Below are positions 27,658 through 45,750 of a stretch of 64,000 nucleotides of DNA, piece after piece. The stretch lies in contig OZ245851.1 of the NCBI GenBank assembly GCA_965228975.1, positions 4,405,953 to 4,469,952 on the forward strand. Direction: 5' to 3'. The number at the start of each line of letters is the position of its first letter. Positions within the stretch are counted from its first letter, which is position 1. Source of the stretch: Alphaproteobacteria bacterium (lineage in GTDB: Bacteria > Pseudomonadota > Alphaproteobacteria > UBA8366). Below the pieces are notes generated by a model. The model ran no database searches. It saw only the letters and a program-made list of their open reading frames with translations, and was not told where the DNA came from. Position numbers and translations under genes: made by a program.

Positions 27658-30600
27658 ATGCGTTTCACGCATTTTTTCGTCGACCATCCGATCTTCGCAA
27701 CCGTCATCTCGGTGTTGATCACCTTGCTCGGCGCGATTTCCTATTTCAGCCTGCCGGTCGCGCAGTATCCCGAAGTCGCGCCGCCGACGATTCAGGTCAC
27801 CGCGACCTATCCCGGCGCCTCCGCCGAGACGATCGCCGACACCGTGGCGACGCCGATCGAGCAGGAAATCAACGGCATCGAGAACATGCTCTACATGCGC
27901 TCGGAATCCACGGGCGACGGGCGTCTGACGCTGACCGTGACCTTCAAGCTCGGCACCGATCTGGATTTCTCGCAGGTGCTGGTCCAGAACCGGGTCGCGA
28001 TCGCCGAGGCCCGCTTGCCCGAACCGGTGCGCCGCCTCGGCGTGACCGTGCAAAAAAGCTCGCCCGACTTGATGATGGTGATCCATCTGCTGTCGCCCGA
28101 CAACTCACGCGACCAGCTCTATATTTCGAACTACGGCCGAACCCAGATCGTCGACCGCCTCGCCCGCATCAACGGCGTCGGCGAGGCGCGAATTTTCGCC
28201 GAACGCGCCTATTCCATGCGCATCTGGCTCGACCCGGAACGTGCGGCCAGCTTCAACATCACCCCCGGAGAGGTCGTCGACGCCCTGCGGCAGAACAACG
28301 TGCAGGTCGCCTCCGGCATCATCAACCAATTGCCGGTGCCCAATCCGGGCGCTTTCGAGATCAATGTCGAGACGCAGGGGCGCCTGATCGCCCCGGATGC
28401 TTTCGGCAATATCGTGGTCAAACGCGGCGAGGGCACATCGACCGTGCGGGTCCAAGACATCGCCCGCGTCGAACTGGGATCGCAGGACTACTCGACCATC
28501 GGCTATCTCGACAAGTCGACGGCGCTGCCGATTCTGATCTTTCAGCGGCCGGGCTCGAACGCGCTGGAGACGGCCGACGAGTTGCAGCGAACGATGAACG
28601 AACTGGCCGAGGATTTTCCGCCCGGCCTCAAACACACGATCGTCTATAACCCGACCGAGTTCATCGAGGAATCGGTGGATGCCGTCTACATGACGCTTAT
28701 CGAGGCGGTGATCCTCGTCGTCCTCGTTGTCGTGGTTTTCCTGCAGAACCTCCGCGCCGCCTTTATTCCGATCATCGCGATCCCGATTTCGCTGGTCGGC
28801 ACCTTCCTGGTCATGGCCGCGTTGGGCTATTCGATCAACAATCTAACGCTGTTCGGTCTGGTCCTGGCGATCGGCGTCGTTGTCGACGACGCCATCGTGG
28901 TCGTCGAGAACGTCGAGCGCTACATCGCGCAAGGGATGAGCGCGGCGGAGGCCGCCCATAAGACGATGGACGAGGTCGGCTCCGCCCTTGTCGCAATGTC
29001 GTTGGTGCTGGTCGCAGTGTTCGTGCCGACCGCCTTCATCGAGGGCATCTCGGGCCAGTTCTACCGGCAATTCGCGGTGACCATCGCGACCGCCACCATG
29101 TTCTCGCTGGTCGTTTCGCTGACCCTTTCGCCGGCTCTCTGCGCATTGTTGCTGAAGAATACCGGCACCCAGCGCAAACAGAACCCGGTAATCTCTTCCG
29201 TCCTGTGGCCATTCCGCAAATTCGCCGATGGATTCAACTGGATCTTTCACCGCATGGGCAACGCATATGCCGGATTCACCCGGCGCGCGGTTCGCATGAC
29301 GCTGATCGTCATGATCGTCTACGCGGGATTGATCGGGTTGACGGTGCACCAGTTCCGCACCGCCCCGACCGGCTTCATCCCCGATCAGGACCAGGGATAC
29401 CTGATCACGGTGATCCAACTGCCCGCCGGATCCAGCCTGGCGCGCACCGATGCGGTCGTGAAACGCGCGGTAAATAAGATTCTCGAACATCCCGAAGTCG
29501 AACACGCGGTCGGCTTTGCCGGATTCGACGGAGCGACCTTTACCAATGCGCCCAATACCGGCGCGATCTTCTTCACGATGAAGGATTTCAACGAGCGGGC
29601 GGGCCGCGGCGCGACCGCGCAAAAAATCCTGGGCGAGGTTCAGGGCAGCCTGTTCCAGATTCAGGAAGCCTTCATCTTCATCGTGGCGCCGCCGCCGGTC
29701 CGAGGGATCGGCAATAGCGGCGGCTGGAAACTGTATGTGCAGGATCGCCGCGGCCGCGGCATCGGCGCGCTCGAAGCGGCGACCAACGAGTTGATCCAGG
29801 CGGCAAACCAGGACCCGAGCCTGACCCAGGTCTTCACCTTGTTCAATACGGCGACGCCGAAGATCTATGCGGATATCGACCGCACCCGCGCCGAAATCCT
29901 GGACGTGCCGGCCGACCGCGTGCTCGAGGCGCTCGAGGTGTTCATCGGCTCGGTCTATATCAACGACTTCAATTTTTTGGGCCGAACCTATCGCGTGACC
30001 GCGCAGGCCGACGGCGCCTATCGCGACGACCCCGGCGACATTGCCAAACTGCGCGCCCGCTCGACGTCCGGCGCCATGGTGCCGCTGGGGTCGGTCGCCA
30101 CATTCCGCGACATCACCGGCCCGCACCGGGTACCGCGCTACAATCTTTACCCTGCAACCGAGGTGATCGGCGCCACCGCACCCGGCGTCTCCACGGGCGA
30201 CGCCATCGAAAAGGTGGAGGCAATCGCCGATCGCGTACTGCCCAGCGGCTTCGACATCGAGTGGACCGAGCTCGCCTTGCAGGAAAAGCTGGCCGGCGAT
30301 ACCGCCCTTATCGCTTTCGGACTCGCGGTGGTCTTCGTCTTTCTGCTGTTGGCCGCGATGTATGAAAGCTGGCTGCTGCCGCTTGCCGTGATCCTGATCG
30401 TGCCGATGTGTCTGCTCGCCGCCCTCGTCGGTATCGGATTGCGCGGCATCGACAGCAATATCCTGGTGCAAATCGGGTTCGTGGTCCTGATCGGCCTCGC
30501 GGCGAAAAACGCGATCCTGATCGTCGAATTCGCCAAGCAGGCGGAAGAAGAAGGCATGAGCCGGATCGACGCCGCCGTGGAAGCCGCCCGTGTGCGCCTG

Positions 30601-30828
30601 CGCCCGATCCTGATGACGGCGCTCGCCTTTATCCTGGGTGTCCTGCCATTGGCCATCGCGACGGGCGCCGGCGCCGAAATGCGCCGTGCGCTCGGAACCG
30701 CGGTGTTCTCGGGTATGCTTGGCGTCACGATTTTCGGGCTATTGTTCACGCCGGCCTTCTATGTGGTGTGTCGATGGATCGCATCGCTGCGGGGTTCGTC
30801 GGACGAGAATGCGGAAACGACACCCTAG
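27658..30828 (+). CDS. RND multidrug efflux permease (AcrB/HAE1 family)
   Basis: Start at MRFTHFFVDHPIFATVISVLI. About 1056 aa with a 12-TM architecture and two large periplasmic loops. Confidence 0.9.
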   Translation: MRFTHFFVDHPIFATVISVLITLLGAISYFSLPVAQYPEVAPPTIQVTATYPGASAETIADTVATPIEQEINGIENMLYMRSESTGDGRLTLTVTFKLGTDLDFSQVLVQNRVAIAEARLPEPVRRLGVTVQKSSPDLMMVIHLLSPDNSRDQLYISNYGRTQIVDRLARINGVGEARIFAERAYSMRIWLDPERAASFNITPGEVVDALRQNNVQVASGIINQLPVPNPGAFEINVETQGRLIAPDAFGNIVVKRGEGTSTVRVQDIARVELGSQDYSTIGYLDKSTALPILIFQRPGSNALETADELQRTMNELAEDFPPGLKHTIVYNPTEFIEESVDAVYMTLIEAVILVVLVVVVFLQNLRAAFIPIIAIPISLVGTFLVMAALGYSINNLTLFGLVLAIGVVVDDAIVVVENVERYIAQGMSAAEAAHKTMDEVGSALVAMSLVLVAVFVPTAFIEGISGQFYRQFAVTIATATMFSLVVSLTLSPALCALLLKNTGTQRKQNPVISSVLWPFRKFADGFNWIFHRMGNAYAGFTRRAVRMTLIVMIVYAGLIGLTVHQFRTAPTGFIPDQDQGYLITVIQLPAGSSLARTDAVVKRAVNKILEHPEVEHAVGFAGFDGATFTNAPNTGAIFFTMKDFNERAGRGATAQKILGEVQGSLFQIQEAFIFIVAPPPVRGIGNSGGWKLYVQDRRGRGIGALEAATNELIQAANQDPSLTQVFTLFNTATPKIYADIDRTRAEILDVPADRVLEALEVFIGSVYINDFNFLGRTYRVTAQADGAYRDDPGDIAKLRARSTSGAMVPLGSVATFRDITGPHRVPRYNLYPATEVIGATAPGVSTGDAIEKVEAIADRVLPSGFDIEWTELALQEKLAGDTALIAFGLAVVFVFLLLAAMYESWLLPLAVILIVPMCLLAALVGIGLRGIDSNILVQIGFVVLIGLAAKNAILIVEFAKQAEEEGMSRIDAAVEAARVRLRPILMTALAFILGVLPLAIATGAGAEMRRALGTAVFSGMLGVTIFGLLFTPAFYVVCRWIASLRGSSDENAETTP

Positions 30829-30866
30829 GCCCATCCACCCGACCTCATCCCTGGATTGCATCGATT

Positions 30867-30889
30867 GTCGGAAAAGATCTTTTCCCGAC
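30867..30889 (+). terminator. Palindromic stem-loop downstream of the RND gene (terminator or protein-binding palindrome)
   Basis: GTCGG-AAAAGATCTTTT-C-CCGAC. The inner 12-mer is a perfect palindrome. Confidence 0.35.
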
Positions 30890-31058
30890 AGCGTGAGCAA
30901 ACGCATTTATCGAAGGTTGACCCAGATCAATGCCGGCCCGTGCCGGACCGGCTAACGAAGTGGTTGGGGGCATATGCAACCGGTCGGCTGCCCGGAATTC
31001 GGGCAAGCGGACGGTTTCGAGTGTGCCAACAAACGGAAGCTACAACGGGCCCTATCAG

Positions 31059-31499
31059 ATGCCAAAATCGACAACTTGGATCCTGGTTTGCGACAGTCAG
31101 CAGGCCCGCATTTTTGAAATTGCCGGAAAAGGCCGCATTGATTTCCTAGGCGACTACAGATCCGAGTTACCGCCGAACCGAGAGATCGAGGCCGATCGGC
31201 CGGGCCGTACGTTCGACCGGGCCGGGCCCGGGCGGCATGCGATGGAGCCTCGGCACGATGCCCATCGGCAAGCCAAACGAATTTTCCTTCGCGCGATGGC
31301 CGAGCGGCTCGACCGGTCCTGCCGCAGCGGCGATTTCACCGACCTCGTGGTCATCGCGCCGCCGACCGCCCTGGGGGATTTGCGGTCCGAATTTTCCGAA
31401 CGGATTCAATCGGCCTTGGTGCAGGAACATGCGAAAGAAGTCTCGGGCTTGTCCGAACCCGACCTCGTGGATTACCTGAAGCGGATCGACGTGATTTAA
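31059..31499 (+). CDS. Host-attachment (AtsE/Host_attach-like) family protein
   Basis: ATG at 31059 (MPKSTTWILVCDSQQARIFE...). Motifs DRPGRTFDRAGPGRHAMEP and LVVIAPPTALGDLR, matching my recollection of this family. Confidence 0.5.
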   Translation: MPKSTTWILVCDSQQARIFEIAGKGRIDFLGDYRSELPPNREIEADRPGRTFDRAGPGRHAMEPRHDAHRQAKRIFLRAMAERLDRSCRSGDFTDLVVIAPPTALGDLRSEFSERIQSALVQEHAKEVSGLSEPDLVDYLKRIDVI

Positions 31500-31653
31500 C
31501 CGTCCGACGCGGTCGACAATCAGGAAGTGGTTTGCCGGCCCGGTCCATGCCCAACGCTAGAAAATAGGGTGGCCCATCTGATCGCCGGCCATGTACCATA
31601 ACTCGTGTTCGACCCAACGGATCACTAGGCCTACGCTGATCAGGAGAGCATCG

Positions 31654-32466
31654 ATGCCCACCGCCCCCGTTCGGGACATCACCGAAGACGAAATTCGCGC
31701 CTATGAGGAAGACGGCGTTGTCCATCTGAAGGGACTGTTCGCGGCCGAATGGGTCGAGATGCTGCGGGAACGGGCGGACCATGTGCTGGCCAACCCGGGA
31801 AAACTGTCCCATGAATTGGCCCGCGAGGACGGCCGCTTTTTCAGCGATACTTTTCTTTGGCACCAGCATGACGGCTTTCGCGACTTTATATATGACTCAC
31901 CGGCTGCCGCGATCGTCGGCCAAATGATGCGGTCGGCGAAGATCAACATCGTCTTCGACCAATTTCTGATCAAGGAACCGGAGACCGACGAGCCGACCGT
32001 CTGGCACCACGATTTGACCTATTGGCCGATCAAGGGCCGGCAGGTGTCGACGTTGTGGCTGGCGCTCGACCCCGTCACCGAAGAGTCGGGCTCGATGGAA
32101 TTCGTGAAGGGTTCGCATAAGTGGGGCCAGCGGTTTCATCCGGTCGCGTTTGTCGATCCGGACAAATACAAGACCGAGGAACCGCCGGTTCCCGACATCG
32201 ACGCCATGCGCGACGCGTTGGAGTTTACCCGCTTCGATTACGAGCCGGGCGACTGCACCGTGCATCAAGGACTGCTGGTGCATGCGGCCGGCGGCAACAA
32301 GCGTAAGGACCGGCGGCGGCGCGCCTATGTTACGCGATGGGCCGGCGACGATGTGGTCTACGACCCGCGTCCGAAAATCCAGCCGATGCTCTGGGAACCC
32401 GACATGCCGGCCGGCGCCGCACTGGACAGCGACCTCTGGCCAAGGGTATGGGAAAGGGCAGCCTAG
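31654..32466 (+). CDS. Phytanoyl-CoA dioxygenase (PhyH) family Fe(II)/2-oxoglutarate oxygenase
   Basis: ATG at 31654 preceded by AGGAGA. WHHDLTYWP (H-x-D) and a distal His (TVHQGLLVHAAGGN). Confidence 0.75.
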   Translation: MPTAPVRDITEDEIRAYEEDGVVHLKGLFAAEWVEMLRERADHVLANPGKLSHELAREDGRFFSDTFLWHQHDGFRDFIYDSPAAAIVGQMMRSAKINIVFDQFLIKEPETDEPTVWHHDLTYWPIKGRQVSTLWLALDPVTEESGSMEFVKGSHKWGQRFHPVAFVDPDKYKTEEPPVPDIDAMRDALEFTRFDYEPGDCTVHQGLLVHAAGGNKRKDRRRRAYVTRWAGDDVVYDPRPKIQPMLWEPDMPAGAALDSDLWPRVWERAA

Positions 32467-32532
32467 GGCCCGCGCCGCCACATCCTTCCAGCCTTCCAGC
32501 GCGCGTCCGCCCCAACCGAAAAGGATGCGCAG

Positions 32533-34707
32533 ATGACGTTGCTCGCGGGATTCCGTATGGTGCAACTCGGCCCCGGCCTCGCCGCCGCAGTGTGCGGGCG
32601 CCTGTTCGCGGATTCCGGCGCCACCGTCACCGCCGTCGATGCAACGACGTCCACCCCGCTGGAACTCTATCTGAACACCGGCAAGGCGTCCGCGAACGAC
32701 GCCGCGGCACGGGACGCCATCGCCACGGCCGACCTCGTCGTCTGCGAAGGCGCGCCCGGCGATCTCCGTGATCAGGGCCGCGATGCGGACAGTCTGCGCG
32801 GAACGGCCAAGACCGCCGCGATCGCCATGATCTCGAATTTCGGGCAGACCGGCCCGCGCGCCGAAAATCCCGCCACCGACCTGACCTTGTTCTATGCCAG
32901 CGGCATGGCGCGCCTGCTGACCGGGCAGGTGACCGATCTGACCGAAGCGCCGATGCGCCCGGTCGGGGAACAGTCGGCCTTTATCGGCGGCATCGCCGCA
33001 GCCTGCGCCGGCATGCATGCGGTCCTGTTCCCCGGTGACGATGCCAGGATCGACATCTCGATCCAAGAGGTCTTGGCGACATTGGCGATCACCGAACTGG
33101 CGCGCGCGGGTCAGACGGGAAAATGCTGGTCCCGAAAGCGCGTGAAGGACGGCAACGGTGCGACGGTCACCATTCTTCCCGCCACGGACGGCTACACGGC
33201 GATTTCGCCGCGCGAGGATCGGCAATGGGCCGCTTGGCTCGCGGCGATGGGCGACCCGGATTGGGGCGGCGACCCGCGTTTCGCCACCAAGCCGGACCGC
33301 GTCGAGAACTGGGACGCGCTGCACGCCTTGATGTTGGACTGGAGCCGCCAACACGATAAGCAGTGGATCGCCGACACCGCGCAAGCCGCCCACGTGCCGA
33401 GCTTTCCGCTGCGCGAGCCCGCCGAACAACTCGAGTCGCCGCAACTGGCACACCGCGAATTCTATGCGACGTTGGACATCGACGGACGGGCGGTGAAAAC
33501 GCCGTCCGCACCGTTCCGGCTTGCCTATAGCGGCGACAAGGCGGCAACCACGGAGGCCCCGGCGCCGCCGGGCCCGCTTCCGTTGTCGGGTGTCCGGGTC
33601 CTGGACTTCAGCTGGGTCATCGCCGGGCCGACCGCGACCCGGCATCTCGCCGCCATGGGCGCGGAGGTCATCAAGGTCGAGGCCCCGGGTCCGGGCGATC
33701 CGGGCCGCGCCTCGGAACTGCACATGGTGCTTGGCCAGGCGAAAAAAGCGATCGTCCTGAACCTGAAGAACCCGGACGCGGTCGAAATCGCGACCGCCCT
33801 CGCCGCGAAATCCGATGTACTGATCGAGAATTTCGCGACCGGCGTGATGGAGCGGCTGGGCCTAGGGGCGGCGGATCTTCAACAGGCCAACCCGGACCTC
33901 ATTTACCTTTCCGCGTCGGGCCTCGGTCGGACCGGGCCGGAGTCGGGCGCCGTCGCCTATGGCACCCTGTTGCAATGCTATGCGGGATTCGCCGGCCTCA
34001 ACCGGCACCCCGAGAACCCGCCTCGGATCGGTTTCGCGTGGCTCGACCCCATGTGCGGCCTCATGCTGCCCTTCGTCGTGGCGTCGGCACTCTGGCAGCG
34101 GCGGCGGGACGGACGCGGCGTCCGGATCGACTTTTCCATGATCGAGGCGATGCTCTGGACCATGGCGCAGCCGCTTCTGACGACACAACTCGACGCGCCG
34201 CCCCCGCCGGCGGGGAACTTCGCCCCGCAGGCGGCACCGCATAACGCCTATCGCTGCGCGGGCGACGACAACTGGCTCGCCGTCGCCGTAACCCGGGAAA
34301 CCGAATGGAAAAGGCTCTGCGCCGCCGTGCCGCCGCTTGCCGCGATGGCCGGATACGGGTTGTGGGAGCGGCTGGCGGCACGCGACGCGATCGACGCCGT
34401 CCTCGGCGACTGGGCGCGCCCGTTGTCCGCGGAAAGCGCCGCCGACACACTGACCGGGGCCGGCGTTCCCGCCGCCGCGCTCGCGACGTCACGCGACCTG
34501 GTCGACGATCCTCATCTCAACGACCGGGGTTTCTGGGACACGCAGGACAGCGGCGTTTTGCCCGGCCTGCCTTGGCGGTCGAATTTCGGCCGCACGGCCG
34601 GCTCGGCGCCCGACCTCGGAGCCGATACCGACGCCGTGCTGCGGGACGTCCTCGGCCTATCGGACGACCGGATCGCCGAGTTGCGCGTTGCCGGGGCGCT
34701 CGGCTAG
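32533..34707 (+). CDS. Tandem-domain family III (CaiB/BaiF) CoA-transferase
   Basis: 724 aa. The second half starts with the canonical LSGVRVLDFSWVIAGPTATRHLAAMGAEVIKVE. The first half (GFRMVQLGPGLAAAVCGRLFADSGATVTAVD) is a diverged copy of the same fold. Confidence 0.75.
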   Translation: MTLLAGFRMVQLGPGLAAAVCGRLFADSGATVTAVDATTSTPLELYLNTGKASANDAAARDAIATADLVVCEGAPGDLRDQGRDADSLRGTAKTAAIAMISNFGQTGPRAENPATDLTLFYASGMARLLTGQVTDLTEAPMRPVGEQSAFIGGIAAACAGMHAVLFPGDDARIDISIQEVLATLAITELARAGQTGKCWSRKRVKDGNGATVTILPATDGYTAISPREDRQWAAWLAAMGDPDWGGDPRFATKPDRVENWDALHALMLDWSRQHDKQWIADTAQAAHVPSFPLREPAEQLESPQLAHREFYATLDIDGRAVKTPSAPFRLAYSGDKAATTEAPAPPGPLPLSGVRVLDFSWVIAGPTATRHLAAMGAEVIKVEAPGPGDPGRASELHMVLGQAKKAIVLNLKNPDAVEIATALAAKSDVLIENFATGVMERLGLGAADLQQANPDLIYLSASGLGRTGPESGAVAYGTLLQCYAGFAGLNRHPENPPRIGFAWLDPMCGLMLPFVVASALWQRRRDGRGVRIDFSMIEAMLWTMAQPLLTTQLDAPPPPAGNFAPQAAPHNAYRCAGDDNWLAVAVTRETEWKRLCAAVPPLAAMAGYGLWERLAARDAIDAVLGDWARPLSAESAADTLTGAGVPAAALATSRDLVDDPHLNDRGFWDTQDSGVLPGLPWRSNFGRTAGSAPDLGADTDAVLRDVLGLSDDRIAELRVAGALG

Positions 34708-34716
34708 CGCGCGGGT

Positions 34717-35634
34717 TCAGAACTCGCCGCTGCGATAGGCTTCGTCGAGGCGCTTCGCCTCTTCTTCCGACAATTCGTCCCACGCCTCGCCACGCCGCCG
34801 CAACGCGCCGGTGAAGTTGGGCGGGCGTTTCTCGTTGAACGCCTCTCGGCCTTCCTCGCCGTCCACGGTGGTCTGGATCAGCATCGAGTTGATCAGGTTC
34901 TGGACGTGCCAGGCCTGATCGGTCGGCAGGTTGCCGAAGCGGACCACGAACTCCTTCATCATCCGCACGGCGACCGGCGGCATCTTGACGATATGGCGGG
35001 CCATCTTCTCCGCCCGTTCCATCAATTCGGCATGGGGGGCTATTTCGTTGATCAGCCCGATCCGCAGGGCTTCCTCGGCATCGAACGGCTCGTCGGTCAG
35101 CAGGATCTTCATCGCATCGATGTATCGAAGCTGCTGGATCAACAGGCTCGCGCCCGGGCCGTGGCCGAGCCAACCCTGGGACAGCAAGGCGAACTTGAAC
35201 CGGGCATGCTCGGCGCTGGCGATCCGGATGTCGGTCGACGCGAGCAACAGATAGAGCCCAGCGCCCGCGGCCCAGCCGTTCACCGCCGCGATGATCGGCT
35301 TCCAGACCCGCGGATAGTGATCGCCCATCCGCCCGTCGACACCGGTCTGCTGGCCATGCACGGTTCCGGCCAGCGGCCAATAGATGCGGTTGGTCCGGAG
35401 ATATTCGCGATCCTCGTCGGTGAGGTCGGGTCGAGGCGCCAGGTTATGGCCGCCGCAGAAATGCCGGTCGCCGGCACCGGTGACGATACCGCAGCGGATA
35501 TCCCGATCCTCCCATAGGTCGACCCATGCCGCCGAGATATCGTCCGACGTCGCCTTGTCGAGGATGTTCGCTTTGTCGATGTTGTTGATGGTGATATACG
35601 CGACGCCGTCGCGTTTCTCGTATTCGATGGCCAA
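34717..35634 (-). CDS. Enoyl-CoA hydratase/isomerase (crotonase) family protein
   Basis: ITINNIDKANILD, FCGGHNL and AAVNGWAAGAGLYLLLASD motifs. Confidence 0.8.
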   Translation of the reverse strand: MAIEYEKRDGVAYITINNIDKANILDKATSDDISAAWVDLWEDRDIRCGIVTGAGDRHFCGGHNLAPRPDLTDEDREYLRTNRIYWPLAGTVHGQQTGVDGRMGDHYPRVWKPIIAAVNGWAAGAGLYLLLASTDIRIASAEHARFKFALLSQGWLGHGPGASLLIQQLRYIDAMKILLTDEPFDAEEALRIGLINEIAPHAELMERAEKMARHIVKMPPVAVRMMKEFVVRFGNLPTDQAWHVQNLINSMLIQTTVDGEEGREAFNEKRPPNFTGALRRRGEAWDELSEEEAKRLDEAYRSGEF

Positions 35635-35781
35635 GTCGGTACCCTCCCGTGCCCAGATGTTGCCGCCGCCACGAAGCCGCGCCCCGGCATTGTCCCGTTT
35701 ATCCGGGCCGGCGACAAACGCATTGCGCCCCGCGCGGCGGTTCCACCGGGCGGGGCGCGTTTTCGGTGTCGAACGGAAACC

Positions 35782-36726
35782 CTATTCGGCGGCGAGCATG
35801 GTGGATTCGGGCACGCGGTACCCGTAGCGCTCCTCCAAACCCAGCTCCTTCACCAACCGAAGGCCCCGCGCGAGATGTTCACCGGTCAACGCATTCAACG
35901 GTTTGCGCATCGGACCCGCCGGCATGCCGACGGCGGCCAACAGCGACTTGACCGGGACGGGGTTGATCGCCGAATAGGCGAAATGCAGCATCGGCAGGTT
36001 CTTCAGATAGGCGTCGCGGAAGCGTGCCGACTGCGCCGGATCGTCCCACGGCGTCGAAATTTCCACCATCTCCCGCGGGATGATGTTGCCGGTCATGTTC
36101 GCGGTGCCATGTCCGCCCAACGACATTGTCGGCACGACAAGGCCGAGGTTCGGCGAGCAGCAACACATGATGGAAATGTCGGGCTTGGCGGCGCATACCT
36201 GCGCGACCTGCGCGACACGGCCGGTCGATTCCTTGTTCACCTGGACGTTCGGATGCGCGGCGATCTCGAGGATTTCGTCGGCGGAAAGGTCCGTCTGGAC
36301 CCGCGGCGGGTTGTTGTAGATGCCGATGGGAATGGGCGACGCGTCGGCGACATCGAGGAAGAACCGGACGATGTCCTGCGTCGACGCGCAGATATAGGCG
36401 GGCGCGGCAATGACGGCGCCATCCGCGCCTTCACCGGCCGCCTGGATCACGTAATCGATCGTCGCCTCGGTCGTCGGGCCGGTGCAGCCATACCAATGTT
36501 CCATCGACCCCTTCTTCATCGGCATGGTTTCCGCGACGATGCGGTGGCGTTCTTCCGGGGTCAGCATCGACACCTCGCCCGACGACCCCATGATGAGGAC
36601 CGCCGATGTGCCGGCGTCGCGCTGGAAATCCAAGAGCGTTTCGAACCCGGCCATATCGATCGAGTAATCTGCGTTCATCGGCGTGATCATTGCGACGAAG
36701 GATCCGGTGATTAGGTTCTTCCCCAT
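35782..36726 (-). CDS. Dihydrodipicolinate synthase (DapA)-family lyase/aldolase
   Basis: GSFVAMITPM...GTSAVLIMGSSGE, IGIYNNPPR and VNKEST (Schiff-base Lys region). Confidence 0.8.
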   Translation of the reverse strand: MGKNLITGSFVAMITPMNADYSIDMAGFETLLDFQRDAGTSAVLIMGSSGEVSMLTPEERHRIVAETMPMKKGSMEHWYGCTGPTTEATIDYVIQAAGEGADGAVIAAPAYICASTQDIVRFFLDVADASPIPIGIYNNPPRVQTDLSADEILEIAAHPNVQVNKESTGRVAQVAQVCAAKPDISIMCCCSPNLGLVVPTMSLGGHGTANMTGNIIPREMVEISTPWDDPAQSARFRDAYLKNLPMLHFAYSAINPVPVKSLLAAVGMPAGPMRKPLNALTGEHLARGLRLVKELGLEERYGYRVPESTMLAAE

Positions 36727-36792
36727 GTCGGGTCTCCCAAATTTAGCGTGCTGTGCGCCGGAGCTGGATGCCCCGTCATGATCGCTCCGGGC

Positions 36793-37584
36793 CTACTTGT
36801 CTCCATAACTCACGGCCATCCCCTCGGCGGGATCGGCCTGCGGACCATACGGCATGATCGGATAGCGTATTCCGGAACGGCTTAGTCCTTCCATCCCTTC
36901 GATGCCGCGCGCCAACTCGTCCGGCGGCAATGCCATGAGCAATTCGTCATCGGCCACGCCGCCGTACCGCCGCTCGGCGAAACAGGGGATCGACAGGCTG
37001 GTCTCGCGCGTCGCGAGCGCCCGGCCCCAAGAATCGGAACAGGCGGTCTCGCCGGTTATCGTGAAATCGTATCGCTTGTACTGTTTCCATTGCAGGCCGT
37101 TGACGAACAGGATCATTTGTCCCGGCGTGGCGTAGAACAACACGATATCCGGCGGGTCGAGCCGCGCCGTCCGCAACGGTGATATGACGATGCCGGAAAA
37201 CCGGTCGGGCGGAACACGGGTCATCTGCGCCTGATGCTGGCGCGCCGCTTCCTGGTTTTCGAACCACACACCGACAAACCGCTCGCCGGACAGGTATTGC
37301 GGCGATGGCTTGCACAATCCCGGCACGCCGCCGCAATTACTGTCGGATTGAAGGTTCTCGGCCGTGATGCCAAGGGTCAAACCGGCCACGCGGCTGTGGG
37401 TCACGAGCTGGCACATGGTGTGCCGGACCCCCGCCTTGGGCCGCCGTAACCGGGGCACGGCATCCATCTCGGCCTGATCGTCGAACAGCTTCATGCCGAC
37501 CGGCAATGTCCGCAGGCTCAGCAACGCGGTGAGCCGTTCCGAAAGCTCCTTGAGCTCGCCTCCTCCCAATCGCTGTTCCGGCAT
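36793..37584 (-). CDS. DUF169-family protein (function unknown)
   Basis: 263 aa. LPVGMKLF, MCQLV and SIPCFAERRYGG...DELLMALP resemble the DUF169 pattern as I recall it. Confidence 0.55.
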   Translation of the reverse strand: MPEQRLGGGELKELSERLTALLSLRTLPVGMKLFDDQAEMDAVPRLRRPKAGVRHTMCQLVTHSRVAGLTLGITAENLQSDSNCGGVPGLCKPSPQYLSGERFVGVWFENQEAARQHQAQMTRVPPDRFSGIVISPLRTARLDPPDIVLFYATPGQMILFVNGLQWKQYKRYDFTITGETACSDSWGRALATRETSLSIPCFAERRYGGVADDELLMALPPDELARGIEGMEGLSRSGIRYPIMPYGPQADPAEGMAVSYGDK

Positions 37585-37615
37585 GGGCGCTCCTACTTTT
37601 TTGCTGGGTTTTCGA

Positions 37616-38341
37616 TCAGCGCGGATCTTTGCGTCCTTCCTTCGGAAGCTTGTGCGGCTTCTCCGGACGGTCCGGGCCCCAGACGCGGTCGTAATAGGAA
37701 TCCGCCAGCATCAAGGCGCCGACCGGGTTATGCGCAAGCACGCGATCCTTCGCGACGAGCGTGGTGACCGGCCCTTCCGAATGTTGGAAGAACAGGCTGT
37801 CGTGGCCGACGCAAAGGCCGAGGACCACATTGAATTCGCAGCCGGCGTCGTTCAGCAATTCCGCCTGGGACACCGGGTTGCACATCGATTCATGTCCGCC
37901 GGGGCGAATCTTCTCGGAATCCTTCAGGCCGATTTCCTCTTTCCCGATGCTGCCGTTCTTGCAGGCGGCGGAGGCCACCTCGAAGCCGTGGCTCTCAAGG
38001 ATTCCGGTCAGGGCGCGCGCCTGATCGACGAAACTGATGCAGGTGGCGATGCCGATCTTCTTGAAGCCCATTTTCTTCGCGAACTGGCAGACCTCTTCCA
38101 CGCGGGTCCAGCGGCAGTAGCCCTCGCTCTCCACACGCGCCGATTCCTGTGCGATTTGGCGGGTGAACGGGTCGGCGTATTTCTCCGCGGCGGCATCGAT
38201 GGCGTCCTGCGCCACCTTCGACGGGCAATAGCCCGGACCGCGGGTCGCGGACTCGCCTTGCCGGCACGCGCGCACGGTCGCCGGGCAGTAGGCGCAGGCG
38301 GCATCGTGGTATTTCTGGGCGGTCGAGGTTTTGAGCGACAT
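37616..38341 (-). CDS. DUF1847-family predicted metal-binding protein
   Basis: N-terminal C-x2-C-x6-C-x12-C cluster (CAYCPATVRACRQGESATRGPGYC). Core FAKKMGFKKIGIATC, MCNPVSQAELLN, LGLCVGHDSLF and VAKDRVLAHNP. Confidence 0.7.
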   Translation of the reverse strand: MSLKTSTAQKYHDAACAYCPATVRACRQGESATRGPGYCPSKVAQDAIDAAAEKYADPFTRQIAQESARVESEGYCRWTRVEEVCQFAKKMGFKKIGIATCISFVDQARALTGILESHGFEVASAACKNGSIGKEEIGLKDSEKIRPGGHESMCNPVSQAELLNDAGCEFNVVLGLCVGHDSLFFQHSEGPVTTLVAKDRVLAHNPVGALMLADSYYDRVWGPDRPEKPHKLPKEGRKDPR

Positions 38342-38450
38342 AATTCCCTCCCATTTTAGGAAGAAAGATAGGGCTATCCGCCGAGGGCCGCTTTGATGTC
38401 GATCAAAAAAACCTAAAAGAATTCAACGCCAAATCGGCGATTGATTATGC

Positions 38451-39881
38451 TCAAGTGGACGATTCCGACGAACGCCAAGACGCCGCCAGCCAGATTCGCG
38501 GCCGCAGTAGCGTCACGGCGAGGAAAGCAAGCAGCAACGCGCCGGACGCCGTCAGCGTCTTGGCGAACGGCGGCAGGAAATCCGCCCCGGCCGTGCCGGC
38601 GCCCACGGGCGTGAAGCCGGTGAAAGCCAAGGCCAGCCCCGTCGCGCCGCTGACGACACCGATCGTCCGGGTCACCATCGCAAGACTGCCGGCCACCCCC
38701 CGTTCGCGCAGCGGCAGGATCGCCGCGACGATCTCCATATAAGCGACCTGGAAGAATCCGAATCCGACACCAACCGTGGCCAATCCCGCAACCATGGTTG
38801 CGATCGATGTCGCAGTGCCCCACTGGCCGATGGCGAGCAATCCCGCCCCGACCAAGACCGCCCCGGCCAAGGCCAATCGCGGCGCGGCGATGCGATCCAG
38901 TAGCCAGCCGCCGGCGGGCCCCGCGAGCACCATCCCGGCGGGGCTCATCGCCAGCACGGCGCCGGCCGTAACCAAGGACAGGTCCGTCATCCGGTCGAGA
39001 TAGAAGGGAACCAGGAACATCACGGCAAAGCCGACCATGTTGACCATGACATTCGAGACATTGACCACCGTGAAAGCCGGATTCCGAAAAAACCGCGGAT
39101 GCAGGATCGGTTCCGGCGACCGCTTCTGCTGCCAAACGAAGGCGGCGAAGCAAGCCAACGCGGCAAGCCCGAGCAACGCCGGCACCAGCGGCTCCCCGGC
39201 GCCGGCATGCCGCGCCTGATTGATCGCCAGCAGGAACGTGCTGAGACCGGCCACCAGCAAGGCCGCGCCGAGAACATCGAACGACCGGGAACCGCTGCCC
39301 GGTTGCGCCTTCGGCAACAGGAACAGCAGGACCAACGTCCCGGCGGCCAACGGCGCCCGGAACCAGAAAACGGCGGACCAGCCCCACTCCGCCACCAGCA
39401 GGCCGCCGAGCGACGGCCCGATCACCCCGCCGAGGCCGAACGCCATCGTGTAGATGCCGAGAACACGGGCGCGGTAAGATTCCGGAAAGAGCATCGTCGC
39501 CAAGGCCGGACCGCAACTTATCACCAACGCCGCGCCCACGCCCTGCAGCGCACGGGCCAGCAACAGCCCGAGGAAGGTCTCGGCCGCACCGCAGAGCGCG
39601 AACGCAACCGCCGACACGAACAATCCGACGCCGAAGATTCTTCGATGCCCGACCAGATCGCCGATCTTGCCGAAGACCAGCGTCAGGCTGGAATAGACCA
39701 ACACATAGCAGATGACGACCCACTGCATATCCTCGAGCGGGACCGCGAAGGCGCGCGTGATGGCGGGAAAGGCGATATTCACCGAGGAGTCGAGCGGCAC
39801 CGTCAAGGTGCCGAGGCCGACGATGAACAGGCCCAGCGCCGCGCGCATCCAACCCCGCTGCGAGGACGTGTCGGCGGTCAT
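38451..39881 (-). CDS. MFS transporter (DHA2-like)
   Basis: ATG at 39881 (MTADTSSQRGWMRAALGLFIVGL...). Motifs GKIGDLVGHRRIF and LARALQGVGAAL. About 14 TM segments. Confidence 0.8.
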   Translation of the reverse strand: MTADTSSQRGWMRAALGLFIVGLGTLTVPLDSSVNIAFPAITRAFAVPLEDMQWVVICYVLVYSSLTLVFGKIGDLVGHRRIFGVGLFVSAVAFALCGAAETFLGLLLARALQGVGAALVISCGPALATMLFPESYRARVLGIYTMAFGLGGVIGPSLGGLLVAEWGWSAVFWFRAPLAAGTLVLLFLLPKAQPGSGSRSFDVLGAALLVAGLSTFLLAINQARHAGAGEPLVPALLGLAALACFAAFVWQQKRSPEPILHPRFFRNPAFTVVNVSNVMVNMVGFAVMFLVPFYLDRMTDLSLVTAGAVLAMSPAGMVLAGPAGGWLLDRIAAPRLALAGAVLVGAGLLAIGQWGTATSIATMVAGLATVGVGFGFFQVAYMEIVAAILPLRERGVAGSLAMVTRTIGVVSGATGLALAFTGFTPVGAGTAGADFLPPFAKTLTASGALLLAFLAVTLLRPRIWLAASWRSSESST

Positions 39882-39993
39882 GAAAAACTCACGGCCGGTC
39901 GGTAAATGTCCTGGCCGACCATCGGTACTGGAATGCTGATCAGGGCAACTCTCCGGATGTCCCGATAACACTACAGCATTGCGAACGCCCGTC

Positions 39994-40341
39994 CTATTGT
40001 TCCGGGATATCGTGCCGGACGTCGTCCCGCCTCAGGTCGTCGATGACCGTTCCTTCCCATAACGGCACGCCCTCGCGATAAGCGGCACGGCCAATCATAT
40101 GCGCCGCGACCGGCGCCGTGACCAAGAGGAAGACGACCGTCGCCAGGGCGCGCGTGGTGATCCCGGCTTCGCCGAAATGAAGCGCAAGCGCCAACAGGAT
40201 CAGCCCGCAGCCGAGCGTGCCCGCTTTGGTCGACGCATGCATGCGAATCAGCACGTCCGGCAACCGCAACACCCCAAGCGCCGCCACGAAGGCGAAAAAC
40301 CCGCCCAGGACGATAACCGTCGCCACCACAATTTCCATCAT
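39994..40341 (-). CDS. mrpG: Mrp/Pha monovalent cation/H+ antiporter subunit G
   Basis: 115 aa with LRLPDVLIRMHASTKAGTLG motif. Last gene of the mrp operon. Confidence 0.85.
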   Translation of the reverse strand: MMEIVVATVIVLGGFFAFVAALGVLRLPDVLIRMHASTKAGTLGCGLILLALALHFGEAGITTRALATVVFLLVTAPVAAHMIGRAAYREGVPLWEGTVIDDLRRDDVRHDIPEQ

Positions 40342-40670
40342 GACTTCGCCTCCTCACCGGAAGAGTTGGATTGTGCGTCCCCCCGGGCCGCCTGGGCGAC
40401 GCGGCGCTCGATATATCGGGCAAGCACCACCGTCGCCAGAAACGCGACGAGGGCCAGCGCAACGCCCACGTCCAGGAACGCCGCCCGCTCGGACGAGATC
40501 GCAACCAAGGCGCAAAAAGCCACCGCCAGGATCGTCATGAGGTCGAGCGCCACGACACGGTCCGCCGCGCTCGGACCCAGCAGGAGCCGGATGAAGGAGA
40601 GAACCAGGGCCGCGATCAGGAAAAAGAAACCGATATCCACCGCCCATGTGAGAATGACGCCGCTTTCCAT
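40338..40670 (-). CDS. mrpF: Mrp/Pha antiporter subunit F
   Basis: 110 aa, 3 TM segments, RLLLGPSAADRVVALD motif. ATGA overlap with mrpG. Confidence 0.85.
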   Translation of the reverse strand: MESGVILTWAVDIGFFFLIAALVLSFIRLLLGPSAADRVVALDLMTILAVAFCALVAISSERAAFLDVGVALALVAFLATVVLARYIERRVAQAARGDAQSNSSGEEAKS

Positions 40671-41143
40671 CAGTCGAATGCCTCCAGCACCTTCCGTTCG
40701 AGACCGTCCTTGATTTCGCGGCGGCTTTCCTCCGGATCGTCGATGAACATCGCATGGACATAGAGCGTCTTGCGATCGTCCGATACGTCGAGGCTGAGCG
40801 AGCCCGGCGTGAGCGACACCAGGTTCGCCACCAACATGATCTGGCCGTCATCCTTCGCGTCGAGCGGTACCGCAATGATGCCCGGACGGCTCCGATGCGC
40901 CGGGGTAATGACATCCCACACCACGCGGAGACTCGAGACGACCAGTTCATACAAGAAGAAGAGGGCGAGACCCGTGACGCTCCAGACGCGTCCGAAATAG
41001 GTCGTCGCGCCGAACAACGGCCGCACGATCCAAAGCGCGCCGTAGCCGACCGCGAATCCGCTGGCCAGGATCGGCCAGGCAAAACTACCCCACAACGCGG
41101 CCCAGCCGAGCGCCAGCAGTCCGTTCAGCAAAAGCAACGTCAT
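40670..41143 (-). CDS. mrpE: Mrp/Pha antiporter subunit E
   Basis: Real start is ATG 41143 (MTLLLLNGLLALGWAALWGSF...), which overlaps the mrpD stop. The listed ORF 40670..42283 is over-extended upstream. Confidence 0.8.
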   Translation of the reverse strand: MTLLLLNGLLALGWAALWGSFAWPILASGFAVGYGALWIVRPLFGATTYFGRVWSVTGLALFFLYELVVSSLRVVWDVITPAHRSRPGIIAVPLDAKDDGQIMLVANLVSLTPGSLSLDVSDDRKTLYVHAMFIDDPEESRREIKDGLERKVLEAFD

Positions 41144-42642
41144 CGCACACCTCGTAAGACCGTCTCGACATAGGCCGTGGGGTCGAGCAACTCGGTGGCG
41201 GACCGCTCGGCCGCGTTCAGGAATGGCTCCGGATAGAACCCGATCCAGAGCGTCAGCACGGCCAGGCCCGCGACCGGCACCAATAGGCAGGTCAGGTCGC
41301 GGCGACCGATAGCAGCGCGCGACGGCAATTCGCCGTCGGGATGCGGCTTCCAGAATGCCTCGGCCCAAATCTTGGTCATCGAGAACACCGTCAGCAACCC
41401 GACGAGCAAGGCGATCCCGGCGATGACATAGGCCTCGGCGTCGAGGCTCGCCTTGACCAGCAAATATTTCGCCCAGAAGCCGGAGAGCGGCGGGAATCCG
41501 GCGAGCGAAAAAGCCGGGATGAGGAACAGGATCGCCAGGATCGGCCGGGATTTGTACAGGCCGCCGATCCGATCCAGATCGAAGGAACCCGTGTAGCGCT
41601 GCACGACCCCGCTGATCAGGAACAGGTTCGCCTTCACGATGATGTGGTGCACCAGATAGAACACCGCCCCGGCAATCGCCAACGGCGCGAAGAGCGCCAA
41701 GCCGAGGACCATGTAGCCGATCTGACTGATGATGTGGAAGGAGAGGATCTTGCGGAACTGGTTCTGCGCCGCGGCGCCCAGCACGCCGGTGATCATCGTC
41801 AACGCCGCGACCACCGACAGGATGCCGTGCGTGTAGCCGATGTCCTGGGTGAAGATCAGGGTGAAGGTGCGGATCAACGCATAGACGCCGACCTTCGTCA
41901 GCAGGCCCGCGAAGATCGCCGAAATGGCGACGGGCGGCGTGTGATAGGACGCCGGCAGCCAGAAGAACAAGGGGAAGACCGCCGACTTGATCCCGAATGC
42001 GACGAGAAACAAAACAGCGACCGCCGTCAGCAAGCCGGTCTCTTCGCTCGCCTGAACGGCGACATGCAGGTCGGCCATGTTGAGTGTCCCGGTCAGGCCA
42101 TACAGCAGGCCGATGCCGCCGAGAAAGAGGATCGTCGATACAAGGTTGAGCGCGACGTATTTGATGCCGCCATCCAATTGCGCCCGGTCGCCGCCCAAAA
42201 CGAGCAGACCGAAGGACGCGATCAGCATGACCTCGAACCAGACATACAGGTTGAAGATGTCGCCGGTCAGGAAAGCCCCGCAAACGCCACCGACCAGGAC
42301 ATGATACAGCGCGTGGAACCCGAGCGCCTCCAGGCGGTCATCGATGTCCGCCAAGGCGTAGACCGCGACCGCCAGCCCGGCGATGGCCGTGATCAGGACC
42401 ATGATAGCGCTCAACAGGTCCGCGACCAGCGTGATGCCGAACGGTGCCGCCCAACCGCCCATCTGCCCGGCGACGATGCCGCCGGTCCAAACCCGGACGG
42501 TCAGCCAAATCGCCGCGAGCAAGAGGGCGAGACTTCCCCCGATGCTGATCGACCGCTGCAGCGCGGGCATGGCGCGCGCGCCGAAGGCGAGGATCGCCGT
42601 CGCAATCGGAATCAGGATCGGGAGGACGAGACCCCAACTCAT
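41140..42642 (-). CDS. mrpD: Mrp/Pha antiporter subunit D (NuoN/NuoM-like)
   Basis: 500 aa proton-conducting membrane transporter fold. Confidence 0.85.
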   Translation of the reverse strand: MSWGLVLPILIPIATAILAFGARAMPALQRSISIGGSLALLLAAIWLTVRVWTGGIVAGQMGGWAAPFGITLVADLLSAIMVLITAIAGLAVAVYALADIDDRLEALGFHALYHVLVGGVCGAFLTGDIFNLYVWFEVMLIASFGLLVLGGDRAQLDGGIKYVALNLVSTILFLGGIGLLYGLTGTLNMADLHVAVQASEETGLLTAVAVLFLVAFGIKSAVFPLFFWLPASYHTPPVAISAIFAGLLTKVGVYALIRTFTLIFTQDIGYTHGILSVVAALTMITGVLGAAAQNQFRKILSFHIISQIGYMVLGLALFAPLAIAGAVFYLVHHIIVKANLFLISGVVQRYTGSFDLDRIGGLYKSRPILAILFLIPAFSLAGFPPLSGFWAKYLLVKASLDAEAYVIAGIALLVGLLTVFSMTKIWAEAFWKPHPDGELPSRAAIGRRDLTCLLVPVAGLAVLTLWIGFYPEPFLNAAERSATELLDPTAYVETVLRGVR

Positions 42643-43028
42643 GACTCCGCCCCGTTCTTCCGGATGGCCGCGGCGGCCGTTGTCCCTTCGGCAATCTGCA
42701 TGGCGTCGCCGTCGACGGTCCCGAGGACGCGCCAGGACCGGTAGACCAGAACCAAGGTGAAGGCGAGCAACCCGAACCCGATCACGATGGCCGTCAGCAC
42801 CAGCGCCTGCGGCAAGGCATTGGCCACCGGCGCCGCGGGCGCGGACAGGCCGCCCGGCACCAGCGGCGGTTCGGCGCGGGTCATCCGCCCTGCGGCGAAG
42901 ATGATCAGGTTCGCCGCGTTGCTGATCAGGACGAGCCCGAACAGGAATTTCACGATGTTACGCCGAAGCATGAGATAGACGCTGGCGGCGACCAACGCGC
43001 CGACGAGAAGAGCCACAAGAGGTTCCAC
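42639..43028 (-). CDS. mrpC: Mrp/Pha antiporter subunit C (NuoK-like)
   Basis: GTG at 43028 (VEPLVALLVGALVAASVYLMLRRNIVKFLFGLVLISNAANL...), 2 nt after the mrpB stop. Confidence 0.75.
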   Translation of the reverse strand: MEPLVALLVGALVAASVYLMLRRNIVKFLFGLVLISNAANLIIFAAGRMTRAEPPLVPGGLSAPAAPVANALPQALVLTAIVIGFGLLAFTLVLVYRSWRVLGTVDGDAMQIAEGTTAAAAIRKNGAES

Positions 43029-43030
43029 GG

Positions 43031-43450
43031 TCAGTCCTCTTCTTCCAACGCGAAGACGAAGGTCAGGACCGCACCGACCACGACGAGATAGACACCGACA
43101 TCGAACATCAGGACCGTACTGACGGGCAGGCCCTTGCCGTCCGCGCTCGCGCCCGCGAACCACCACAGCCCGGTCAGGAAAGCGGCGTCCGCGAAGGCCG
43201 CCGTCAGGCCGGCGCATAACGCCACCCCGAGACCGGTCACGGCGATCATCATGGGATCCACCCGCAGCGCTCGGCGTGCCGCCGCCGCCCCGTGCGCGAT
43301 GGCGTAGAGCGCATATCCGGTCGCCGCCAGGAGGCCGCCGATGAATCCGCCGCCGGGCTCGTTGTGCCCCCGCAACAGCATGAACATCGAGAAGACCAGC
43401 ATCAGGCTGACCAGAATCCGGGTCGCGGCGTTCAGGATGACGGAATTCAC
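43031..43450 (-). CDS. mrpB: Mrp/Pha antiporter subunit B
   Basis: 139 aa with [16 protein letters not shown] motif. Confidence 0.85.
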
Positions 43451-45750
43451 GATGCGTCCTCCGAACGGGGGCGCGCCTTGAGGACCGCATAGGCGGCCAG
43501 TGCGGCGATCACGACCACGGCGATCTCACCGAACGTATCCAGGGCCCGGAAGTCGACCAGGATCACATTGACGATGTTGCGGCCGAAGGCGGCGGGAACG
43601 CTGTTCTCCTCGAAGAAGGCCGTCAGCGTGCGGTCGAAAGGAGTGTGCGTCACCGCCAGGAGAACCAATGTGACAACCGCTCCGGTGCCGAATGCCAAGA
43701 CGGCATCGCGCCGCCGGCCCCAGCGGCTGGTCTGCGCGACCGTATTCAACCGCGGCAATCGCAGCAGAACCACCGCTACCAGGATCACCACGAGCGATTC
43801 GACAAGAAGTTGCGTGATCGCGACGTCCGGCGCGCCGTTTAGCAGGAACAAGAGGGCGACGCCGACGCCGACGGTTCCAAGCGCGGCCATGGCGGCCAAC
43901 CGGGACGCGGAAAACACGACCGCAACGGTGCCCGCGAGGACCAACGCAGCGACGCCCCATTCCACCAACGCCAGACTGGGCCAAGCGCTCGGCAATTTCA
44001 GCGCATCCCGCAAGACCAGCGTCGCCCCGACCGACAGGGTCAGGACCGTGAAGACCACCGCGATATACCGGCGCAACAACCCGCCCTGCAGCCAATCCGT
44101 CTGCGCCGCCGCAATCCAGCGCAGCCCCTGCAGGCACCGATCGTACGCTTCGTCGCCGCTGATCGGCAGGCGCGCGAAGCTCGCAGCCAATACATCGCGC
44201 AATCGCCAATGGCCCGCGTAGATCGCGATCCCCGTCAGGAACGTCATCATGCTGAGCATGAGCGGCAGGTTGATACCGTGCCAGAGGGCCAACTGGACCG
44301 TTTCCGGGCGCCCGAGGATCGCCGCGACGCCGGGCTGCACCAATGTGTCCGCGACCAGCGCCGGCGCGACGCCGAATGCCAGCCCCATCACGGCGAGCAA
44401 CAAGGGACCGACCCACATTCGGAACGGCACCTCCGCCGGCGCCCTCGGCGTGGACGTTCGTTCGCCGAAGAAGGGCTGGAGGGCCACGATCCCTGCAACG
44501 CCCACCATCAATGCGTTGGCGAGGACAGCCGCAGACGCCACCAACGCCGGTTCGGAGGCGATCGCCAAGGCGCCTTCGTATTTCAGCTCCTTGCCGATGA
44601 ACCCGAGGAACGGCGGAAAGCCGGCCATCGACAACGCGGACGCGGCCGCGATGAAGACAGTGATCGGCATGACGCGCCGGAGGCCACCCAATTGGCGGAT
44701 ATCGCGGGTTCCGGTGCTGTAGTCGATATTGCCGACCACAAGGAACAACGCCGCCTTATAAAGGGAATGGACGATAAGGAAGGTAACGGCGGCGGCGACG
44801 GCGACCGTCGCTTCCGCGCCTAGGAACATGGTCAACGTCCCGAGCGCCATGACCGTGGTATAGGCCAACATCATCTTGAGGTCGGTCTGCCGAATCGCCA
44901 ACAGCGAGGCGTAAATAGCGGTCGCCGCCCCGAAGGCCGTCAGCGTCCAGATCCATAAATCGGTCCCGCTCAGCGTCGGATGCATCCGCGCCAACAAATA
45001 AACGCCGGCTTTCACCATGGTCGCGGAATGCAGGAACGCGCTGACCGGCGTCGGCGCGGCCATCGCATTCGGCAGCCAAAAATGAAACGGAACCTGCGCC
45101 GATTTGGTGAAGGCGCCGATCAGGATCAGCACGAGGATACCGGCGTAATGGGGGTGTGCGCGGATAAGGTCGCCACTGGCGATGATTTCCGACAGTTCGA
45201 AACTGTCGGCCGCGTTGCCGAGCAGGATGAATCCGGCAAGCAGGACCAGCCCGCCGGCGCCGGTTACCAACAGCGCTTGCAGCGCCGACCGGCGCGCCTT
45301 GGGCGACGTGTGGTCATAGCCGATCAACAGATAGGACGTGATCGTCGTTACTTCCCAAAAGACGAACAGAGTGATCAGGTTGTCGGCCAGGACCAGCCCC
45401 AGCATCCCGCCCATGAACAGAGAAAGGTAGAGAAAGAAGCGGCAGAAATGGGCATGGCCCGCGAGGTAAGCCGATGAGTAGGTCAGGATAACGATGCTGA
45501 TGACGCTGATCAGGAGCCCGAATGTCAGGCTCAGACCATCGATGAGAAACGAGAAGTTGACGCCGATGCCCGGCACCCATGGCACGCCGATCCGCAAGGC
45601 CTCTCCCGCGGCCACCGTCGGCAGCAAACTCGCCAATAGCCCCGCGGCGGCGATTGCGGGTACAAGCGCCAGCGGCACCGTTAGGCGCGCCATTGGCGAC
45701 AACGTCGCCCGCATCGGCCGGTCGGCCGGATCTTTAGTCCCCGAATTCAT
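43447..45750 (-). CDS. mrpA: Mrp/Pha antiporter subunit A (NuoL-like with C-terminal MrpB-like domain)
   Basis: 767 aa. The exact start among the N-terminal Met codons is uncertain. Confidence 0.85.

Follow-up and report, generated by a model that had tools for sequence, protein, structure and literature searches.

Family III coenzyme A (CoA) transferases carry their catalytic Asp in a GYD/AYD segment (Asp169 in formyl-CoA transferase), and the canonical glutamates of enoyl-CoA hydratases (ECH) are Glu144 in GGGxE and Glu164 in xPE of the rat enzyme. In the benzylsuccinate system, the family III transferase BbsEF (PDB 9fn0) consists of separate, nonidentical subunits, with Asp in chain A and Gly in chain B, and is genetically partnered with the crotonase BbsH. 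CaiB, the L-carnitine CoA-transferase, and CaiD, the crotonobetainyl-CoA hydratase, likewise combine a family III transferase with a crotonase. DddD, a CoA-transferase/lyase for dimethylsulfoniopropionate (DMSP), contains two CaiB-like domains in tandem, at residues 1-416 and 439-821 (PMC7174347). Here, we compare these systems with an 8.2-kb region of seven genes from an alphaproteobacterial genome of the UBA8366 lineage (GCA_965228975.1, contig OZ245851.1), in which genes for a PhyH-family dioxygenase and a doubled CoA-transferase face genes for a crotonase-like protein, a DapA-like lyase, an MFS transporter, and members of two families without assigned function, DUF169 (PF02596) and DUF1847 (PF08901). 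The region lies within a stretch of 64,000 nucleotides (nt) (contig positions 4,405,953 to 4,469,952), referred to below as the window. An earlier note on this DNA had read the seven genes as one pathway for uptake, CoA activation, hydration, aldol cleavage, and hydroxylation of an organic acid or betaine-like compound. Comparison with ∼170 related loci indicates that the region is probably a mosaic in which three or more units, each inherited independently, lie together in one alphaproteobacterial lineage, and not one pathway. The genes are as follows, with protein lengths in amino acids (aa).

31654-32466, + strand: PhyH-family Fe(II)/2-oxoglutarate dioxygenase, MysH-like, 270 aa (Pfam PhyH, E 2.6e-33)
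32533-34707, + strand: fused double family III CoA-transferase, 724 aa (two CoA_transf_3 domains in a single open reading frame [ORF], E 7.6e-126)
34717-35634, - strand: atypical crotonase-superfamily protein, 305 aa (Pfam ECH_1, E 4.4e-36)
35782-36726, - strand: DapA-like class I (Schiff-base) lyase of the DHDPS family, 314 aa (Pfam DHDPS, E 3e-39)
36793-37584, - strand: DUF169 protein, 263 aa (Pfam DUF169, E 5.8e-42)
37616-38341, - strand: DUF1847 protein, cysteine-rich, 241 aa (Pfam DUF1847, E 9.3e-65)
38451-39881, - strand: MFS transporter, DHA2/EmrB-efflux-like, 476 aa (Pfam MFS_1, E 2.9e-48)

Domain calls were made with Pfam, and equivalog calls with the curated cut-offs of NCBIfam. The ORF listing and the Pfam matches bore out the genes and families originally named, with coordinates exact or within a few codons. 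The layout was also as described, with two convergent units whose stop codons at 34707 and 34717 are separated by 9 nt, and with intergenic gaps, in gene order, of 66, 9, 147, 66, 31, and 109 nt (the longest thus within the limit of ∼150 nt given before). For the PhyH gene, the start used here agrees with an identical 270-aa protein on record. The frame of the MFS gene is that of the ORF at 38451-39971; an overlapping ORF (38413-39852) had no Pfam match. No regulator was found within the seven-gene region, as had been noticed earlier; the nearest one found was a LysR gene at 49701-50621.

The sole widely conserved unit is the doubled CoA-transferase together with the crotonase-like gene facing it (unit 1). 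Orthologs of the transferase were numerous (65-91% identical, roughly 720 aa), and 82 loci encoding them were compared. Orthologs of the window crotonase, which at 77-99% identity were better conserved than the transferase (64-70%), were present in 35 of these 82 loci and were encoded on the opposite strand every time. The count was 14 of 17 when the comparison was limited to loci flanked by 3 kb or more on both sides, and 8 of 9 when it was limited to those flanked by 5 kb or more. At two genome loci, a convergent gene for a ∼305-aa crotonase comes after the doubled transferase. Since the crotonase gene recurs at this frequency (14/17) and in this orientation, a functional pair straddles the convergence point, and the crotonase is the partner of the transferase rather than of the DapA-like and DUF genes with which it shares a strand. 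The gene pairing noticed in the first reading thus proved widely conserved, whereas its identification as CaiB/CaiD did not hold (see below). The other neighbors of the transferase vary. In other lineages, the slot just upstream of it is occupied by a gene for a luciferase-like monooxygenase or a VOC-family protein, on the same strand solely in loci L087 and L088. An amidase-like gene was also found in this variable slot, and a gene for an ATP-binding cassette (ABC) substrate-binding protein is a further neighbor. A PhyH gene was found beside the doubled transferase in 2 of the 82 loci, both near-identical, and this adjacency is known solely from L004, L005, L089, and L090. Genes for the DUF, DapA-like, and MFS proteins occurred in just one of the 82 loci, L089 (96-97% identical).

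The DUF genes showed a different pattern of neighbors. For DUF1847, 83 loci with 10 kb on each side were searched by tblastn with every window protein. In ∼77 of them (70-95% identical), none of DUF169, the DapA-like lyase, the crotonase, the transferase, PhyH, or the window MFS protein was found. The entire cluster was present in L004 (DUF1847 95% identical), and L005 (93%) contained the cluster minus DUF169, with the DapA-like gene 77 nt after DUF1847 (10708-10785). In L001 (88%), the order Mrp-DUF1847-DUF169-DapA-like continues with an MFS gene other than that of the window, and no ortholog of the window transferase, crotonase, or PhyH was found there within 10 kb. Orthologs of the window MFS protein were confined to L004, L005, and L089, and DapA-like orthologs stood beside DUF1847 only in these three loci and L001. 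When all ORFs neighboring DUF1847 in the 83 loci were clustered, no family was found in more than 11 of them, and just lineage-specific syntenies emerged. DUF169 orthologs (65-93% identical) behaved similarly: those at 66-70% identity stood in six unrelated contexts, all six without DUF1847 nearby. DUF1847 and DUF169 are normally stand-alone genes, and their neighbors in the window tell little of their function. Since the DUF genes are not co-conserved with the CoA enzymes, the one-pathway reading is unsupported; co-conservation was the check by which the earlier note proposed to judge its own hypothesis. Its suggestion that the CoA-dependent enzymes could point to the biochemical roles of the two DUF families is likewise unsupported, and the seven-gene arrangement is complete only in near-identical relatives. 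A tempting guilt-by-association annotation is thereby removed for two widespread DUF families, and attention shifts to the fused, single-Asp family III CoA-transferase and its atypical crotonase as an uncharacterized conserved pair.

Besides unit 1, the MysH-like PhyH dioxygenase would represent a lineage-specific add-on (unit 2), and the genes for the efflux-type MFS protein, DUF1847, DUF169, and the DapA-like lyase would form an arrangement specific to the lineage of the window (unit 3). Several points weigh against this division. The genes of the minus strand follow one another at distances of 31 to 147 nt, and co-transcription of all five here is plausible as judged from the layout. In 11 of the 83 loci, DUF1847 has a DHDPS-family gene no more than 6 kb away, and DUF1847 and DUF169 are adjacent also in L006, in another arrangement and with other neighbors. 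Many of the metagenome contigs are short, so that missing partners partly reflect limited sampling. Finally, all reaction assignments in unit 1 are, like the single active site proposed for its transferase, points that we infer.

The two halves of the transferase differ at the position of the catalytic residue. The N half (about residues 1-345), which is diverged, carries Asp116 in the segment PATD116LTL, where it aligns with the catalytic Asp of 4ed9, 10uh, and 9fn0_A; with its CoA_transf_3 match and an Asp in the xxD-x3-Q/x-x3-G segment of this half, the protein qualifies as a member of family III. The C half (about 346-724) gave the stronger Pfam match and has Gly477 at the equivalent position, in a segment (VAYG477TLLQ) that aligns with the GYD/AYD segment of solved enzymes. 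Both residues were invariant across the orthologs (82 of 82). Gly likewise occupies the Asp position in chain B of benzylsuccinate CoA-transferase (9fn0_B, MGYGVNL). Because Asp-bearing and Asp-less halves are combined as in this two-subunit enzyme, the window protein, a covalent fusion, would behave as a pseudo-heterodimer in which each polypeptide provides a single active site. BbsEF thus matches it in its Asp-bearing/Asp-less pattern and in its partnership with a crotonase. In contrast to the separate subunits of BbsEF, both halves are contained in one 724-aa chain, and sequence similarity to BbsEF is modest (E 6.7e-12 and 1.4e-41). The bbs operon context is not matched either, as no bbs-type genes (acyl-CoA dehydrogenase, SDR, or thiolase) were found in the window or in the 82 related loci. 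Unlike the Bbs system, the pair of the window type is hosted by soil and aquatic Alphaproteobacteria and contains a crotonase without hydratase glutamates.

In this crotonase, GAGLY128 replaces the GGGxE of hydratases and FKFA149L150 (FKFALL) replaces xxPE in an alignment with 3rsi. Tyr128 and Leu150 were found in 34 of 34 orthologs, and position 149 was Ala in 30 and Ser in 4 of the 34. Both catalytic glutamates being replaced, the protein does not classify as a canonical enoyl-CoA hydratase, and simple hydration, the step assigned to it before, appears doubtful. The second-best solved relatives (6sla and 3hrx) are isomerase-like and also lack both Glu residues. Isomerization, decarboxylation, or other enolate chemistry would be likelier than hydration. 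In the proposed mechanism of unit 1, the transferase would move CoA from a donor thioester to a carboxylic acid via Asp116, the crotonase-like partner would act on the resulting thioester by one of these reactions, and the transferase would recycle the CoA, as in CaiB/CaiD or ScpC/ScpB. The pair is common in soil Alphaproteobacteria, and identification of its substrate would define a new CoA-dependent conversion.

The tight spacing and shared strand of the genes, and the presence of the full arrangement in L004 and L089 and of most of it in L005, would also fit one recently assembled catabolic island for an organic acid or betaine-like compound, with transport, CoA activation, crotonase processing, DapA-like cleavage, and PhyH oxidation as its steps and the DUF proteins as accessory redox components. 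However, L004, L005, and L089 are near-identical (DUF1847 93-97%) and amount to about one observation, and the units are separate in all other loci. DUF169 is missing in L005, and L001 has no transferase, crotonase, or PhyH ortholog nearby, as described above. The efflux type of the MFS protein and the missing hydratase residues of the crotonase fit such an island poorly as well, and so do the missed cut-offs for CaiB and CaiD; we regard it as quite unlikely. Very improbable is a carnitine or gamma-butyrobetaine system (CaiB/CaiD), or a DddD-like system for DMSP, even though a family III transferase paired with a crotonase recalls the former, whose CoA-recycling logic is plausible here too, and the tandem two-domain layout recalls DddD. 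The window transferase scored 104.5 bits against a cut-off of 413 bits for CaiB (NF002914), and the crotonase scored 100.2 against 500 bits for CaiD (NF002936), so that neither protein belongs to these equivalogs. Unlike CaiB, the transferase is doubled, and no caiT-, caiA-, or caiC-type genes accompany it; among solved structures, it is closest to formyl-CoA, benzylsuccinate, and YfdE-type transferases, and the crotonase lacks the hydratase glutamates. At 724 aa, the protein is also ∼100 aa shorter than DddD (∼820 aa; the sequences were not directly compared), and there is no BCCT transporter and no dddBC-type or other ddd gene near it. None of the proteins of the cluster reached an NCBIfam equivalog cut-off, and no characterized pathway could be mapped onto the cluster, in agreement with its description as uncharacterized.

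A further alternative treats the CoA genes as mere neighbors and joins DUF1847 to DUF169, and perhaps also to the DapA-like lyase, in a functional module of this clade, i.e., a pair of cysteine-rich metalloproteins with a 2-oxo-acid or amino-acid-derived substrate. A tandem arrangement of the two genes, 31 nt apart, is seen in the window and in L001, L004, and L089. They are adjacent again in L006 (DUF1847 88% identical; 1090-2742), where DUF1451 and DUF1847 are followed by DUF169 in convergent orientation to DUF1847 among different surrounding genes; this adjacency is a hint of a link between the two. Both genes also occur, unlinked on separate contigs (L047 and L085), in the Sneathiellales metagenome-assembled genome CAYFNG01, and the DHDPS-family genes near DUF1847 in 11 of 83 loci would fit a lyase partner. 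On the other hand, adjacency is confined to one narrow clade in which DUF1847 is 88% identical or more, L005, L007, and L008 (86-93%) and 75 more distant loci have no DUF169 nearby, and the six DUF169 contexts without DUF1847 point the same way. Moreover, no fusion proteins were found among the top 120 matches of either family. We consider such a module unlikely. More doubtful still is its specific form, a new two-protein metallo-redox system of DUF1847 and DUF169 working with the DapA-like Schiff-base lyase in this clade, which is suggested by two four-cysteine sites, four DUF169 cysteines, and the recurrence of the two genes side by side, four times in tandem and, in L006, in convergent orientation. 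If true, the adjacency would be the first genomic clue to the role of two old DUF families. The mosaic of independently inherited units is the reading we prefer to these alternatives, and for PF08901 and PF02596 the window adds lineage-specific adjacency alone.

The remaining enzymes and the transporter of units 2 and 3 resemble known proteins to various degrees. The top solved relative of the PhyH protein was MysH (PDB 9c9n, E 6.8e-46), an Fe/2-oxoglutarate dioxygenase from the tailoring of mycosporine-like amino acids (MAA), which alpha-hydroxylates an N-linked glycyl group (PMC10666671), and the iron-binding residues HxD...H are present. In contrast to MysH, the protein has an alphaproteobacterial host and no accompanying mysABCD genes, no MAA genes were found beside it in the window, and its adjacency to the transferase is limited to close relatives. 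The top NCBIfam match of the MFS protein was TIGR00711 (DHA2 efflux; E 1.5e-51), at 175.6 bits versus a cut-off of 230.2 bits. Among the 25 matches listed, most, including the best 12, were efflux pumps, and four weak ones were nutrient-transporter subfamilies. From its sequence, the protein appears efflux-like without being a certified TIGR00711 member, which argues against the uptake role originally assigned to it. The DapA-like protein scored 166.3 bits against the TIGR00674 equivalog cut-off of 206.15 bits and thus falls short of DapA, the 4-hydroxy-tetrahydrodipicolinate synthase, with which it shares the DHDPS fold family and catalytic residues: the Schiff-base Lys in VNKESTG and the Tyr and Arg of YNxPxR are present, and the TT motif is changed to SS.

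The DUF1847 protein is a full-length member of its family (Pfam score 217.4 bits versus a cut-off of 25). Counting Met1, its translation contains C16-x2-C19-x6-C26-x12-C39, CNP at 154-156, and GLCVGHD at 175-181, confirming the motifs read off before. An alignment of 45 diverse members revealed eight cysteines kept family-wide in two groups of four (C16, C19, C26, and C39, and in addition C101, C127, C154, and C177), and H180 and D181 of GLCVGHD were likewise kept. DUF1847 is probably a redox or metal protein, and the cysteine pattern suggests a two-site metal (Fe-S or Zn) protein with four cysteines per site. An AlphaFold2 model built with 16 close homologs was poor (predicted local distance difference test [pLDDT] score, 55), and its Foldseek matches, the aspartate racemase C-domain (E 5.8e-4) and Dph2 (E 1.3e-3), with template modeling (TM) scores of about 0.3, hint at no more than a Rossmann-like core, and that weakly. 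Dph2 was also considered as a sequence relative and rejected (E 0.62, not significant).

The DUF1847 family comprises 1,387 clusters at 50% identity, and homologs of the window protein number thousands, the best 120 being 71-94% identical. The first reading had described the family as mostly seen in anaerobes and archaea; this clade, on the contrary, is abundant in metagenome-assembled genomes of Alphaproteobacteria, SAR324, Nitrospinota, and Rokubacteria. In a scan of the 80 best genome loci, every one from a metagenome-assembled genome and none from an isolate, hosts also included Gammaproteobacteria, Methylomirabilota, and Tectomicrobia. The orthologs were 70-95% identical across these phyla, which points to unusually strong constraint or horizontal spread. 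Some longer relatives of 327-383 aa (P0401, P0402, P0404, P0405, P0412, P0484, and P0507) matched the query in 2 to 3 stretches, with the top-scoring stretch in the C-terminal half; judging by these matches, they may be duplications or fusions and a possible functional hint.

One lineage-specific synteny of DUF1847 comprises an Asp/Glu-racemase-like gene, an M1 peptidase gene, and an oligopeptide ABC transporter; others involve MmcB with UPF0047, a sulfatase, or an SDR or acyl-CoA dehydrogenase. In L028, L033, L034, L038, L064, and L073 (about 9-13 kb), DUF1847 comes directly after an Asp/Glu-racemase/arylmalonate-decarboxylase-like gene and is flanked by the oligopeptide ABC transporter and the M1 aminopeptidase. 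An aspartate racemase domain was also the top Foldseek match of the poor DUF1847 model. The association of DUF1847 with DHDPS-family genes was judged weak, with direct adjacency in 4-5 of 83 loci and a large paralogous family.

DUF169 is likewise a full-length family member (144.3 bits versus a cut-off of 27), and C57, C83, C181, and C200 are invariant in its clade. Its AlphaFold2 model was confident (pLDDT, 88), and Foldseek found no fold match for it in the PDB (best E 0.11). Among close relatives, the presence and orientation of DUF169 vary (missing in L005, convergent in L006), and in L006 it adjoins the DUF1451 zinc-ribbon gene. In the literature searched, there was no paper with the DUF1847 name or identifiers and none characterizing DUF169, consistent with the description of both as families without assigned function. 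DUF169 is mentioned there only incidentally, as a neighbor of TauE in Desulfovibrio, as one of the predicted partners of YedE, and, on occasion, as part of SepRS clusters. For work on these families, the eight DUF1847 cysteines, the identity of at least 70% across phyla, and a DUF169 model without a PDB match are facts of use.

The region is flanked by the following features.

26442-30828: RND efflux pair
30930-31499: baeRF12/Host_attach family gene (release-factor-like fold), between the RND pump and PhyH
39971-45750: complete operon for a multisubunit cation/proton antiporter of the Mrp type, directly upstream of the MFS and DUF genes and sharing their strand (-)

A promoter/terminator scan of 30800-40600 gave a signal no better than shuffled sequence, and neither Rfam families nor tRNA genes were found when the whole window was scanned for them. 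G+C content was ∼61-67% across the entire window. The position of the baeRF12/Host_attach gene is retained in L004, L005, and L089, and the synteny of Mrp and DUF1847 recurs in L001 and L005.

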